Shown in pieces: positions 4,218 through 17,653 of a stretch of DNA of 64,000 bases (the first letter of the stretch is position 1; every line of letters begins with the position of its first letter). Origin of the DNA: Litoreibacter sp. (GTDB lineage Bacteria; Pseudomonadota; Alphaproteobacteria; Rhodobacterales; Rhodobacteraceae). Where the stretch lies: NCBI GenBank assembly GCA_026710325.1, contig JAPORH010000130.1, positions 177 to 64,176 on the forward strand, given 5' to 3'. A model generated the notes under the pieces. That model did not search any database. It saw nothing but the letters and a program-made list of their open reading frames with translations, and had not been told where the DNA came from. A program made the translations under genes and the position numbers.

Positions 4218-4715
4218 ATGGGCGGGATAGGTGGCATGGAGTTGCTGATCATTGGGCTGGTCGCGTTGATCGTGGTCGGGCCCAAGGACCTGCCGGGCAT
4301 GTTCCGCACCATGGGGCAATTCACCGGCAAGGCGCGACGCATGGCGCGGGAGTTTTCCAACGCCATGGAAGCCGCCGCTGATGACGCGGGCGTGTCGGAC
4401 GTGACCAAGACACTGAAAGCTGCGACGAACCCGAAGAAGATGGGATTGGATGCGGTCAAGAAGGCGATCGACCCATCGGATTACCCAGAGGGCTCCGAGA
4501 CCCAGAAGCTCGCACAGGAACGTGCCGACGCTGCCAAGAAAATCCACGAAGCCACGGCGAAGAAAGAAGCGGAGAAACGCGCCGCAGCTGCTGCTGCGGA
4601 GGCGGGCGACGCCGAGCCATCGCCAAAGCCTGCGGCGACGAAAGCTGCTGATGCAACGGCCGCTGAGCCAGAGCTGCCTCCCGAAGACCCATCCCCTAAG
4701 AAAGCCGCGTCATGA
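4218..4715 (+). CDS. tatB: Twin-arginine translocase TatB
   Basis: [19 protein letters not shown] motif; between tatA and tatC. Confidence 0.95.
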
Positions 4716-5617
4716 GCGACAGCAACGCGACCCCGGACGATCTGGAAGACAGCTCCGCCCCGCTGATTGAGCATCTGGCGGAACTGCGCACGCGGCTTAT
4801 CCGTTCCGTGCTGGCTTTCCTGGTGGCTATGTCAGTGTGCTTTGCCTTTGGCGGCATGATCCTCGACTTCCTGTTGACGCCGATTGAGAACACGATGCGC
4901 AACCTCGGGAACCCGAACCCGGTGATGCAATACACGGCGCCGCAGGAATATTTCTTCACCCTGATCCGCATCTCCATGGTGGGGGGGCTGTGCTTGGCTT
5001 TCCCCGTGATCGCGTTCCAGATGTGGCGCTTTGTGGCGCCAGGCCTCTACAAGCAGGAAAAGAGTGCATTTCTGCCCTTCTTGATTGCTTCGCCCGTGAT
5101 GTTTCTATTGGGCGCTTCTTTTGCGCATTACGTGGTTGTCCCGCTGGCGATGCAATTCTTCTTGGGCTTTGCAGACCTGCCATCCTATTTCGCGACGCTG
5201 ATTGCGTCAGAAGAAGTGATCGAAGGCGCGCAGGACACCGGCATCGACATTGTCTTCAACGGCAAGGTCAACGAGAGCCTTGATATTACGTTGAAAATGA
5301 TCGTGGCCTTCGGCCTCTGCTTCCAGCTGCCGGTTTTGTTGACGTTGATGGGCAAAGCGGGGCTTGCCTCCTCTGAGGGGCTCAAGAACGTCCGTAAATA
5401 TGCGATTGTCGGCATCCTGACCGTCGCAGCGCTCGTGACGCCGCCCGATGTGACCACGCAGCTTTTGCTCTTCACCGTGGTCTATGGCCTTTACGAGGTC
5501 TCGATCTTCTTGGTCAAACGCGTGGAAAAGCAGCGCGAAGCGAAGCTTAAGGAAGACGGGCTTTGGGATGAAGAAGAGGATGACGAAGAGCATCACGCCG
5601 AGGATCGCGGTCCTTGA
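4712..5617 (+). CDS. tatC: Twin-arginine translocase TatC
   Basis: [26 protein letters not shown] motifs. Confidence 0.96.
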
Positions 5618-6453
5618 ACGAAGATGCCTTGCAGCGCATTGCCGAGGCGTTGGAGCGCGTCTCCCCGCCGCCTGGCACTAGGCCCGATTTCTCGGAGGCG
5701 TCTGCCTTTTTGTGGCATATCAGCCCCGACCGGTTGCAACCTGTCGCAAACGTCAAACGCGTGGCCTTGGAGCTGCTGATCGGGGTGGACCGCGCGCGCG
5801 ATACCTTACTCGCCAATACCCAACAGTTTGCCAAAGGCTTTGCGGCCAATAATGCGCTTCTCTGGGGGGCGCGGGGAATGGGAAAGTCCTCGCTTGTCAA
5901 AGCCGTACATGGCGCTGTGAGCGCGGAGTACCCGCTGAAGCTTATCGAGCTGCAACGCGAAGATTTGCCCTCCGTCGGGCGGCTTTTGGGGGTCTTGCGG
6001 GACGCACCCGAGGAACGCTTCGTGCTTTTTTGTGACGATCTGAGCTTTAGCCATGATGACGAACACTACAAATCGCTCAAGGCGGTGCTCGATGGCGGGA
6101 TTGAGGGGCGGCCGGAGAATGTGATCCTTTATGCGACCTCCAACCGTCGCCACCTGATGCCGCGTGACATGATCGAAAATGAACGTGGCTCGGCGATTAA
6201 CCCGTCAGAGGCGGTGGAGGAGAAAGTGTCTCTCTCAGACAGGTTCGGCCTGTGGCTAGGCTTCCACCCCTGCGATCAAGACGAATTTCTGCAGATGATC
6301 CAAGGCTATTGTGACGCGCATGGTGTGACAATCGATGCGGAGACCTTACGCGCCGAGGCGGTCGAATGGCAGCAAACCCGCGGATCAAGATCGGGCAGGG
6401 TGGCTTGGCAATACTTCACCGATTTGGCTGGACGGCGCGGCGTGGCTCTTTGA
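5614..6453 (+). CDS. AAA+ ATP-binding protein (DUF815 family)
   Basis: Walker A GARGMGKSS, Walker B LFCDDLSF, YATSNRRHL. Confidence 0.88.
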   Translation: MNEDALQRIAEALERVSPPPGTRPDFSEASAFLWHISPDRLQPVANVKRVALELLIGVDRARDTLLANTQQFAKGFAANNALLWGARGMGKSSLVKAVHGAVSAEYPLKLIELQREDLPSVGRLLGVLRDAPEERFVLFCDDLSFSHDDEHYKSLKAVLDGGIEGRPENVILYATSNRRHLMPRDMIENERGSAINPSEAVEEKVSLSDRFGLWLGFHPCDQDEFLQMIQGYCDAHGVTIDAETLRAEAVEWQQTRGSRSGRVAWQYFTDLAGRRGVAL

Positions 6454-6469
6454 CGCGAATACAGCCTGA

Positions 6470-6520
6470 AAAAATAAGAAAAACCCGTGATGAGGGGTGA
6501 GGGACATCACGGGCTTTCTT
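6470..6520 (-). terminator. Intrinsic terminator hairpin with C-rich loop, U-tail on the minus strand
   Basis: Minus strand GCCCGTGATG-TCCCTCACCCCT-CATCACGGGT-TTTTCTTATTTTTT; core stem 6484-6492/6505-6513. Confidence 0.75.
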
Positions 6521-6640
6521 AAACGATCGCTTGGAAATGACGTTCGAAATACTCACTAACCAATACAGCTATTGATACCTTTTACGCGTCTCAACTGGCC
6601 ATATTCTAAGAGGCGGTTGCGGAAGAAATTGGGAAGTGTT
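6470..6640 (-). ncRNA. Candidate CtrA-controlled small RNA (5' end approximate)
   Basis: Non-coding gap between convergent genes, bounded by tandem CtrA boxes upstream and a terminator with anti-SD-like loop downstream; no credible ORF. Confidence 0.4.
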
Positions 6641-6672
6641 GTGTTAAATTTACACGGAAATTGTCACAGGTA

Positions 6673-6710
6673 TTAACCAAAGGTTAACGCGAAGGTTAAC
6701 CAGTGGTTAA
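6673..6710. promoter_or_regulatory. Two tandem CtrA binding boxes (TTAA-N7-TTAA)
   Basis: TTAA-CCAAAGG-TTAAC at 6673-6688 and TTAA-CCAGTGG-TTAA at 6696-6710 (reads TTAA-CCACTGG-TTAAC on the minus strand). Confidence 0.75.
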
Positions 6711-6728
6711 TGCCTCGATCCAGGCCAA

Positions 6729-7871
6729 TTACTGGAAATATTTCTGCGGATTAACGCTGTCGAACCCTTCGCGAATCTCGAAATGCAAAAAGGCCGGTGA
6801 GCCGCTGCCAACCTGCGCGATTCTTTGACCGCGCCGCACCTTATCGCCCTTCTTGACGGTGATGTTCGAGATGTTGGCGTAGACGGTCAGAACATTGTTG
6901 GGATGCCGCATCACAAGAATGGGCACCTGCTCGGTATCGCGCGTGATGGCTGCAACCGTTCCGTCTGCGGCGGCGGCCACGGGCGTTCCTGCGGCAGCCG
7001 CTATGTCGATCCCCTCATTCTTGCCCTTCTTATAGGGGCGAATGATCTCGCCGGAGACCGGGCGAGCGAATTGGGGTGCTGTCGCAACTTCTGGTTTCTT
7101 CTGCTCAGGCGCTTTGGCCGCAGGTACGGGGGCTGGCAGCGGGGTAGAGGCCGAAGGCGGCGTCGGGGTCGCCGTTCCCTGTCCGGGGGCAGCCGCAGGC
7201 GCTGCGGCCACAGGCGTCACCTGGGCCTCCTCGTCGACCACCGGGATGAGCAGGAATTGATAAACCCGCACTTCAAGATCAGGTCCCAGCCCGTTCCATT
7301 CGGCCAGCGAGCGCACCGAGACCTTGTAAAGCCGCGCAATCGAGAAGGCTGTTTCGCCTCGCGCGACGCGGTGACGAAGTGGCTCTGGCCCGTCTATCCG
7401 TTTGGAAGGTTGAGCTTGGGCGATGCCGCCTTGCGCAGCAGGTGCGCGGTCAATCGCGCTGGTGGCGATATCTGCGATGTTTCCGCTCGATGTCCCTGGC
7501 GCGGCTGGGGCGGGCAGGGAGGCTGGCAGTAGCAGCGTCTCGCCACCGATGAAGCTGTCTGCCGGGTTAAGTCCGTTCAACCCGGCGATTTCTTGTACGT
7601 TGCCACCGACCCGTGCGGCGATGGAGGCAGTCGTGTCGCCACGGCGCGCCACAGCAACCTGATAGTTGGGGTAGGAGATCACCCCACGCGTGTCCGGCGC
7701 GGGCCTTGCCAAAGTGGCTTGCCGCGCCGCATCTGACGTATCGAGCCCGCCTGCGGCGCCGCGCAGATCGAAATCGAGATTTGAGATGGAATTGTTGATC
7801 GTGTCGCAGGCGGTTAGCCCAAACCCAACTGCTATCAGTGGCAAAATCTTGCCAAATCGCGTGTTCCGCAT
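6729..7871 (-). CDS. nlpD: LysM/M23 peptidase-domain lipoprotein (NlpD-like)
   Basis: Lipobox GLTAC; two LysM repeats; C-terminal M23 domain (GIDIA, LHFEIR); follows surE-pcm. Confidence 0.85.
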   Translation of the reverse strand: MRNTRFGKILPLIAVGFGLTACDTINNSISNLDFDLRGAAGGLDTSDAARQATLARPAPDTRGVISYPNYQVAVARRGDTTASIAARVGGNVQEIAGLNGLNPADSFIGGETLLLPASLPAPAAPGTSSGNIADIATSAIDRAPAAQGGIAQAQPSKRIDGPEPLRHRVARGETAFSIARLYKVSVRSLAEWNGLGPDLEVRVYQFLLIPVVDEEAQVTPVAAAPAAAPGQGTATPTPPSASTPLPAPVPAAKAPEQKKPEVATAPQFARPVSGEIIRPYKKGKNEGIDIAAAAGTPVAAAADGTVAAITRDTEQVPILVMRHPNNVLTVYANISNITVKKGDKVRRGQRIAQVGSGSPAFLHFEIREGFDSVNPQKYFQ

Positions 7872-7917: not shown

Positions 7918-8571
7918 TTAGTCTTGCCCCAGCCCCTCTAGCAAGGGGACAAATCGTACCGGCATTAGTTCTTCGTAATCAAAGCTTTGCTCCAGCCGCG
8001 TCACCTTTATGAGGTGTTGCACGGTGTCGGATTGGCCAACCGGTACTACCATGATACCGCCCTCGCGCAATTGCGCCAAGAGCGGCCCTGGCGGGTCTTC
8101 GGCGGCGGCCGTCACAATGATGCGGTCAAACGGCGCTTGTTCGGGCAGACCGAAGCTCCCATCAGCGGTCAGCACGGTGACATTGGTGATGTCCATGGCT
8201 TCGAACATCTTTTTGACAGGGCGGGTGAGGGCTGCGTGTCGGTCGACAGTGTAGACGCGGCGGGCCAGATGGCTCAGCACGGCCGCCTGGTAGCCGGAGC
8301 CGGTGCCGACCTCGAGTACCTTGTCGCGTGGCGTGACGTCCAGCGCTTGTGTCATCATGCCAACGACCGAAGGTTGGCTGATCGTCTGCCCGCAAGAGAT
8401 GGGAAGCGGCATATCCTCATAGGCGCGCTCGGAAAAATGGCCTGTCACGAAAGCGCCGCGGTCAACCTTTTCCATCGCCGTCAACACGCGCTTATCCATC
8501 ACGCCTTTTGAGCGCAGCGCGTAGAGGAACTGCATCTTGCGTTCCGCCTCGGATATCGCGTCGTCGGTCAT
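7918..8571 (-). CDS. pcm: Protein-L-isoaspartate O-methyltransferase
   Basis: [31 protein letters not shown]. Confidence 0.96.
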
Positions 8572-9365
8572 CCGAGCTTGGCTTGAAGTGCCGAGAGTTG
8601 GTCATGCGCGGTCAAATCGCAGCGCATCGGCGTGACGGAGATATAGCCATCGAGATTAACGGTCGCATCGGTGTTTTTGCCCGAACCCACATTTTGCGGG
8701 TTCCCTTGTATCCAAAGGTATTTGCGCCCGTTTGGCGGCAGGTGGGATGTCACCCCAAACCCGCCAGATGGCCGCCGCCCTTGCGCGACGACGCGTGTGC
8801 CTTTGACGTCTGACGCGGGGACGGGCGGGAAATTGACATTGAAGAATGTGTTATACCCGTGGGTGTGGCCGCCGCCGCCCCAGGCCCCGTGGGCGAGCAA
8901 ATCTTGCACGAGCTTGGCCCCATGTTCTGCCGCCGCCTCAAACGGGTTTTCGAGCTTTGCATTGGCCGGGCCGAAATATTGCGACATGGCGATGGATTTG
9001 ACGCCTTGCAAGGCGGCCTCCATGCAAGCCCCGATCGTGCCAGAATAGACGGTGTTCTCGGCCGAATTGTTTCCCTTGTTCACCCCTGACAGGATCAGGT
9101 CGGGTGGTGCGTCGGCCATCACATCATGGAGGCCTGCAAGAACGCAATCGGCGGGTGCGCCCTCAGCCGCGAAGCGGCGCTTTCCCATTTGTGCGATCAT
9201 GGTGGGGTGGGCGTAATTGATGCAGTGGGCGACGCCGGATTTCTCGAAGGCAGGGGCCACGGTCCAAACCTCGCCATCTGGGCCGGCGACGGCTTGAGCT
9301 ATCGCACTCAACACTTCTAAGCCCGGCGCATTGATGCCGTCATCATTGGTGATCAATATCCGCAT
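8568..9365 (-). CDS. surE: 5'/3'-nucleotidase SurE
   Basis: [29 protein letters not shown]. Confidence 0.96.
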
Positions 9366-17443: not shown

Positions 17444-17487
17444 TTGCGTTTTAATCCCACCTTTTGAGTTGAAGTCAGCGCGTCTTG

Positions 17488-17550
17488 CTACTGCATCGTG
17501 CCAAGCACAATGGCACCAAAGAACATCAACTCGATCATGAAAAGCCGCAT
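17488..17550 (-). CDS. Candidate 20-aa hydrophobic micro-protein
   Basis: ATG...TAG giving MRLFMIELMFFGAIVLGTMQ; AGGTGG 10 nt upstream; CtrA box about 54 nt upstream; terminator downstream. Confidence 0.35.
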   Translation of the reverse strand: MRLFMIELMFFGAIVLGTMQ

Positions 17551-17602
17551 ACTGCCCAACCACCTATAGTCACTCACCCCACTGGGACCGTCGGCTATAC
17601 TG

Positions 17603-17618
17603 GTTAATATTGGGTTAA
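17603..17618 (-). promoter_or_regulatory. CtrA binding box
   Basis: Minus strand TTAA-CCCAATA-TTAAC, full consensus. Confidence 0.65.
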
Positions 17619-17653
17619 TGCTCAATGGGAGCTTGAGAAACGCATTGTTTCTT

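Follow-up and report, generated by a model that had tools for sequence, protein, structure and literature searches.

Setting of the gap

What is encoded in the 275 bp between two converging genes, where two CtrA-type boxes and a terminator hairpin are found beyond the stop codons of both neighbours? The window, that is, the whole stretch of 64,000 nucleotides that was analysed, belongs to a Litoreibacter genome of 4.19 Mb with 57.8% G+C (G000). As the earlier note had described, the gap (6454–6728) follows two stop codons, at 6451–6453 on the plus strand and 6729–6731 on the minus strand, which end a DUF815 gene and an nlpD-like gene, respectively. From its sequence and from comparison with relatives we propose that it most likely holds an unannotated gene for a CtrA-activated, minus-strand small non-coding RNA, a proposal that we hold with about even confidence. 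The surrounding genes are as follows.

4712–5617, plus strand: tatC, gene context
5614–6453, plus strand: DUF815 AAA-type ATPase gene, the converging neighbour, 3' of tatC (Pfam DUF815, E 6e-102)
6729–7871, minus strand: nlpD/DipM-like LysM and peptidase M23 gene, upstream of the predicted RNA and on the same strand (Pfam LysM, Peptidase_M23)
7918–8571, minus strand: pcm, converging on tatC/DUF815
8568–9365, minus strand: surE, converging on tatC/DUF815

The nlpD-like protein was also compared with the NCBIfam models for ActS, DipM and NlpD, and all matches fell under the cut-off. The gap has a G+C content of 39–45%, against 58% for the genome, and the fold of its minus strand is better than that of 200 out of 200 shuffled sequences (z = -4.9). 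A replication origin was considered for this site and dropped, since there is no GC-skew switch across the window and DnaA boxes are absent. The whole genome was searched for a module of (T)GTGTAC repeats, phased at 11 bp and adjoining TTAAC sites, and has no array of three or more phased GTGTAC; the gap contains a single GTGTA.

CtrA-type boxes

Two perfect TTAA-N7-TTAA boxes within 38 bp had been claimed for the gap, and both are present.

6673–6687, palindromic: CtrA-type box 1, TTAACCAAAGGTTAA, exact match, promoter-proximal
6696–6710, palindromic: CtrA-type box 2, TTAACCAGTGGTTAA, exact match, upstream site

Both boxes form the longer palindrome TTAACC-N3-GGTTAA. They can thus be read both ways, as had been pointed out, and therefore give no direction to transcription. 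Box 2 is located 18 nt from the nlpD stop codon.

The motif TTAA-N7-TTAA occurs three times in the 64-kb window compared with an expectation of 0.17, and none of 100 shuffles reached three. In the 4.19-Mb genome there are 39 copies, 37 of which lie outside ORFs (by a crude ORF call), and the pair in the gap is the sole one within 23 bp. Copies are found 25–56 nt 5' of dprA (45 nt from the start), radC (25 nt), two Hint_2 genes, a PAS_7 gene and a GT2-MshEN gene; a PAS_5 gene is likewise shortly preceded by one. Three Hint_2 genes of this genome have perfect CtrA boxes 40–110 nt upstream. The regulator itself is encoded on contig C86 (133–852), with a match to NF045991 of 425.5 bits, the cut-off being 350. 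Because the copies are mostly intergenic and stand before dprA-, radC- and Hint-type genes in a genome that encodes CtrA, their distribution supports the view that TTAA-N7-TTAA acts like a real marker of the CtrA regulon here. In Dinoroseobacter and Rhodobacter, DNA-uptake and signalling genes of this kind are part of the network of CtrA and quorum sensing (PMC6473078).

Promoter-like elements and terminator

The elements assigned to the minus strand of the gap are listed below in the order of predicted transcription.

6652–6647, minus strand: -10-like hexamer TAAATT, 20 nt after box 1, read from the sequence
6640–6648, minus strand: predicted transcription start zone, from the -10-like hexamer and the positions of Caulobacter motifs (PMC4287350)
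6470–6642, minus strand: predicted non-coding RNA, about 170 nt, with no Rfam match and no ORF in common with the sister species
6524–6559, minus strand: conserved block, GAGUAUUUCGAACGUCAUUUCCAAGCGAUCG, immediately before the terminator; a small hairpin is predicted in it
6484–6513, minus strand: terminator hairpin with a G+C-rich stem of 9 bp (6484–6492 / 6505–6513), extendable to about 13 bp
6504–6493, minus strand: hairpin loop, 12 nt, C-rich, UCCCUCACCCCU
6483–6469, minus strand: U-tract, UUUUUCUUAUUUUUU, the minus strand reading TTTTTCTTATTTTTT after the hairpin

In Caulobacter, full CtrA motifs are situated near -35 of activated promoters (PMC4287350), and additional upstream CtrA sites, for example at pilA, tune timing (PMC11264516). 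The two-site layout of the gap is compatible with such promoters: the downstream half-site of box 1 falls at the -35 position for the predicted minus-strand transcription, and box 2 would occupy about -70 to -56, given a start near 6641. The TAAATT reported earlier near 6652–6647 of the minus strand was recovered, and the sister species (G019; metagenome-assembled genome JBCCDV01) has TATTTT at the same distance from box 1. The dprA promoter of G000 is arranged in nearly the same way. There, TAGTTT lies 17 nt after the box (18 nt to the A of GTAGTT), and TTAA is followed by TACCTCTG...TAGTTT (TTAA followed by TACCTSTG), the corresponding layout in the gap being TTAA followed by TACCTGTG...TAAATT. 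A scan for consensus sigma-70 promoters called none in the gap, TAAATT included. The spacing from box 1 to the predicted start is 6–8 nt longer than in the Caulobacter example at -39 (PMC4287350); with the Caulobacter spacing, in which the 5' end of the motif is near -39, the start would land inside TAAATT.

Read on the minus strand, the hairpin has the structure ...GCCCGUGAUG-UCCCUCACCCCU-CAUCACGGGUUUUUCUUAUUUUUU and runs into the U-tract, whereas the plus strand offers just CTTTCTTAAA after the hairpin. In the terminator scan the hairpin with its U-tract was called on the minus strand alone, 172–207 nt past box 1. A hairpin with a minus-strand U-tail, as proposed in the earlier note, is therefore present, although the hairpin proper ends at 6513 and not at 6516. 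On the plus side of the boxes no TAnnnT was found at promoter distance. The conserved -10-like hexamer and the genuine U-tail thus support the minus orientation as the better one. In addition, the conserved block of 35 nt lies within the minus-strand transcript and outside any plus-strand one; in a plus-strand reading it would be 3' of a weak terminator.

From these elements the following course of events may be envisaged. Phosphorylated CtrA would bind both TTAACC-N3-GGTTAA sites, with box 1 (6673–6687) standing in for the -35 element and TAAATT (6652–6647) serving as the -10 element. Transcription would then proceed from near 6641 to the intrinsic terminator (6513–6484 and the U-tract), yielding an RNA of about 170 nt. 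The same RNA is probably also carried as the 3' UTR of nlpD, the terminator being common to both transcripts. The 12-nt C-rich loop, together with about 35 nt before the hairpin, could pair with target mRNAs or bind a chaperone.

Conservation in the sister species and in other relatives

By BLAST, the gap matches G019 alone, with 76% identity over 236 bp; nothing beyond this was found in 60 relatives, 400 Rhodobacteraceae genomes, plasmids and phages. Among 185,579 species genomes the exact tandem-box pattern also returned G019 alone. Metagenome contigs gave 19 matches to the pattern, all of which were unrelated repeats or another repeated element. A profile built from the G000 and G019 RNAs, when run with nhmmer against all fetched loci and the whole genome, revealed no paralogue and no distant homologue, and the predicted RNA sequence is single copy in G000.

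One such repeated element in the metagenomes has the form TTAACCTAAGGTTAA-N8-TTAACCTTAGGTTAA, with flanks GGTTGCACC... and further TTAAC repeats; it is unrelated to the gap. It recurs across many contigs in a small number of metagenomes (Ga0056114, Ga0056129 and Ga0056130; loci L038, L040–L043, L046–L050, L052–L054 and L056), and may represent either the terminus of a mobile element or a docking region with multiple sites.

In comparison with G019, conservation is concentrated in blocks. The 38-bp block with the boxes is identical at 37 of 38 positions, each box being kept in full. The loop and inner stem of the hairpin form a run of 24 identical nucleotides, the longest in the gap. This run at the hairpin (24 nt) and those at the two boxes (22 and 17 nt) are among the longest non-coding stretches of full identity within 30 kb. 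A single compensatory change is seen in the stem, from C-G in G000 to U-A in G019; the covariation is confined to this single base pair because there is just one true homologue. Between 6480 and 6559, 70 of 80 positions match, and the first 80 nt or so of the predicted RNA are poorly kept. The block at 6524–6559 is a candidate for the functional or seed region. For reference, the four-fold degenerate sites of the flanking genes are 44% identical between the two genomes (197/448), and neighbouring intergenic regions are 63–85% identical, so that the overall 72% of the gap is ordinary. In view of this intergenic baseline, exceptional conservation was no longer claimed for the entire gap; the block pattern alone is informative. 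No ORF is common to the two genomes compared.

The nlpD gene converges with DUF815 in about half of 80 Rhodobacteraceae loci, and the gap in these is usually 0–130 bp. An enlarged slot is a feature of a clade of six Litoreibacter species in the tree. Two boxes are found in the slot of G000 and G019. G030 and G023 each have one perfect box, TTAAC-N5-GTTAA, 8–17 nt from the nlpD stop codon, with poor -10-like hexamers and a minus-strand terminator adjoining the DUF815 stop codon. G020 has a gap of 262 bp without a box, and the slot of G008 (locus L006) is occupied by a Hint-domain gene of about 350 aa. In other Litoreibacter (L009, L017 and L030) the slot is filled by a Hint gene of about 350 aa that has the orientation of nlpD, or by the gene for a protein of about 240 aa. 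Because its content differs from species to species, the slot after nlpD is variable and the predicted element young and lineage-specific. As side observations, the protein of about 240 aa ends ...ALIGVAVSADSDDTD..., and an 18-codon ORF is present in the slots of G030 (L011; MTRLKPYSRRKLTLASTL) and G023 (L014; MTLLVSYYRPKLTLTSFV), in each case followed by the minus-strand terminator.

A search for known RNA families (cmscan of 5800–7400, E ≤ 10) gave just a chance match to snoR97 (E 3.3; 20.8 bits compared with a gathering score of 40), and Rfam returned nothing at E ≤ 1 for the loci of G019, G030 and G023. With no Rfam family matched even at E ≤ 10, the kinship with the suhB/MmgR or CcsR families that had been put forward is not supported. 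Nor is conservation across Roseobacters: the boxes are kept in G019 and a single box in G030 and G023, which confines the element to one small Litoreibacter subclade. The earlier proposal of a CtrA-controlled small RNA thus finds partial support, in the motifs, the conserved blocks, the minus orientation and the absence of a common ORF.

Alternative explanations

No terminator was detected from the nlpD stop codon to 6513, and therefore the sequence of the predicted RNA is probably nlpD 3' UTR too. It is conceivable, if rather unlikely, that the gap is a long nlpD 3' UTR and nothing more, running to the common terminator, and that the boxes act otherwise than by starting a small RNA. In variants of this idea, with the same low likelihood, CtrA bound 18 nt after the stop codon would act as a roadblock that modulates read-through, or would drive plus-strand transcription antisense to the 3' end of nlpD. 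Besides the lack of an earlier terminator, the idea draws on the position of the boxes, which lie 8–18 nt from the nlpD stop codon in all four box-bearing genomes, on their palindromic nature, which allows either direction, and on the 17-bp hairpin that the two boxes would form in RNA. The central N3 of the boxes, however, are not mutually paired, and the single box of G030 and G023 points to a protein site rather than to an RNA hairpin. The nearest hexamer on the plus side is AAATAT, 25 nt from the box, which is coding and common to boxless genomes, whereas on the minus side a -10-like hexamer is conserved, with the spacing of the dprA promoter. Alternatively, the gap might be what is left of a decaying gene cassette, in a slot that has more than once taken up additional minus-strand genes; a CtrA-regulated gene would have been lost, and its promoter and terminator would persist with no present function. 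We regard this as improbable. Such an origin would agree with the Hint gene of about 350 aa or the gene for the protein of about 240 aa in the same slot of other Litoreibacter, with the CtrA boxes of Hint_2 genes elsewhere in G000, with the gap of 0–130 bp in most Rhodobacteraceae and with a G+C content of 39–45% in a 58% genome. Yet the gap shows no residual similarity to the Hint gene or the other genes of the slot, four species retain perfect boxes, and G000 and G019 have kept the loop and the 35-nt block in common while their four-fold sites are just 44% identical; a dead remnant should have decayed.

The remaining two explanations concern the identity of the regulator and of the product. 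Another palindrome-binding regulator, and not CtrA, might recognize TTAACC-N3-GGTTAA at two operators 23 bp apart; both sites are indeed longer perfect palindromes than the CtrA core requires, and the identical tandem patterns in metagenomes represent an unrelated repeated element. The extra CC/GG is not common to the genome-wide TTAA-N7-TTAA set, though, and is missing from the TTAAC-N5-GTTAA boxes of G030 and G023, while the same core precedes dprA, radC and Hint genes in a genome that has ctrA. We thus consider a different regulator highly improbable. We give hardly any credence to a transcript that encodes a very small protein. The 18-codon ORF of G030 and G023 begins exactly 35 nt after the box and has the same end in both, and elsewhere in the window the box at 17604 precedes a 20-codon ORF with a Shine-Dalgarno sequence. 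Against this, the candidates in G000 and G019 are ORFs of three codons, none of them common to both, and the frame starting with GTG/TTG is broken by a 1-nt indel and runs through the terminator. The 18-codon ORF itself is probably not coding, because third codon positions account for only 3 of the 15 differences between G030 and G023, unlike in coding sequence.

Comparison with known small RNAs

A CtrA-activated small RNA in the gap would have its nearest counterpart in kind in CcnA (CCNA_R0094) of Caulobacter crescentus, the CCCC loop of which pairs with GGGG near ribosome-binding sites, its partners including the ctrA/gcrA 5' UTR (PMC8959179). CcnA and the predicted RNA are alike in size (about 170–180 nt), in having a CtrA box in the promoter and in a C-rich loop with CCCC (PMC8959179). 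They differ in location, CcnA being inside the replication origin and the predicted RNA between nlpD and DUF815 with no GC-skew switch, and they have no sequence similarity. The ctrA leader (C86:1–132; L150–L153) is conserved across five Litoreibacter genomes and, some 20 nt ahead of the AUG, contains GAGGGG(N)C(Y)TATCGGAG, with ATTAACC and GTTAAT-like half-sites upstream; the GAGGGG recalls the GGGG element in the ctrA leaders of Caulobacter and Sinorhizobium (PMC8959179). Pairing of the loop with the ctrA start region was calculated at -14.4 kcal/mol, which ranks 895 out of 3576. A CcnA-like action on ctrA is not supported by this unremarkable rank.

Small RNAs altered in a ctrA mutant have been described in Rhodobacter capsulatus (PMC5546546), and six non-coding RNAs with CtrA motifs appear in the transcription start site map of Caulobacter (PMC4287350). 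These are of the same kind as the predicted RNA and come from the same order or class; they were obtained by RNA-seq or 5' RACE, whereas the Litoreibacter RNA is predicted from sequence alone. We see an evenly balanced prospect that it would join this known kind of CtrA-dependent non-coding RNA, as a member found in two species.

The position of the predicted RNA also invites comparison with small RNAs that are embedded in 3' UTRs. MicL (cutC) and DapZ (after dapB) of E. coli and Salmonella are of this type, with their own promoter and the terminator of the mRNA. Like these, the predicted RNA follows a coding gene on the same strand, would share its terminator and has a conserved putative seed close to that terminator. 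Unlike these, its promoter would lie after the stop codon and not within the CDS, and its regulator would be CtrA. With CcsR/cuckoo, alpha-r14, MmgR/suhB and BjrC1505 it has in common a loop rich in C and U that could base-pair with ribosome-binding sites of purine-rich sequence; it differs from them in giving no covariance-model match. Its C-rich motif is in the terminator loop and not in the repeated CCUCCUCCC hairpins of these alphaproteobacterial anti-Shine-Dalgarno small RNAs.

Target search

The loop was scanned against 3576 predicted start regions of G000. With a 20-nt probe, rank 1 of the 3576 was the ribosome-binding site of a low-molecular-weight protein tyrosine phosphatase gene (C217:11805). 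This site is a 13-nt perfect complement, GAUGAGGGGUGAG, which ends one base before the AUG, and four of its bases have their partners in the stem. When the probe is reduced to the 12-nt loop, the site ranks at about 25 of 3576, and its rank in G019 is equivalent; at the corresponding position the G019 orthologue reads GGUGAGGGG. Six relatives without the predicted RNA lack the G-rich site. Since this amounts to one lineage event chosen after the fact, the phosphatase is a lead only. The loop scan, the search for loop-complement motifs, which yielded nothing decisive, and the antisense search gave no convincing target; long antisense targets were discarded, as just 13–14-mers at chance level were seen.

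Perhaps the slot after nlpD serves as a cradle for young CtrA-controlled genes, in which case the loop UCCCUCACCCCU of the small RNA might mask the ribosome-binding site of the phosphatase while CtrA drives both genes, in an incoherent feed-forward loop. We put this forward as an improbable scheme. The phosphatase gene carries TTAAC half-sites upstream.

As a separate observation, an 18-bp perfect palindrome, GGTAAGGAATTCCTTACC, is found 10–25 nt upstream of the phosphatase start (C217:11700–11805; loci L156–L162). It is intact in five of eight Litoreibacter genomes and altered at one or two positions in the other three, and is probably an operator or an RNA hairpin.

Other CtrA boxes without a downstream gene

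At least three other places in G000 have such boxes without a downstream gene. The third perfect box of the window, TTAACCCAATATTAA (17618–17604, minus strand), is situated in the gap 17444–17653, where no downstream gene is annotated. It is followed by AGGTGG, a hydrophobic 20-codon ORF (MRLFMIELMFFGAIVLGTMQ) and a hairpin, and 17444–17653 (minus strand) is probably a CtrA-driven micro-protein gene. At C17:3878–4080 and C13:6689–6915, both on the plus strand (L154 and L155), a perfect TTAA-N7-TTAA is followed by about 150–200 nt without an ORF and by an intrinsic terminator. Neither locus gave an Rfam match, and both are candidates for further CtrA-linked small RNAs.

Significance

Motility, gene-transfer agents, DNA uptake and cell division are all under CtrA control in the Roseobacter group, which is abundant in the sea. 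To our knowledge, almost nothing has been reported on the small RNAs of its regulon there. The reach of the present case is limited, since it is lineage-specific and one of its two hosts is a metagenome-assembled genome. If confirmed, the gap would provide a clean example of a small RNA promoter dependent on CtrA, in which both sites are perfect and the terminator is defined. It would also represent a very young small RNA gene, held by two species and arisen in a gap that usually measures less than 130 bp. Finally, it would suggest that perfect CtrA boxes in gaps without a downstream gene mark unannotated small genes.
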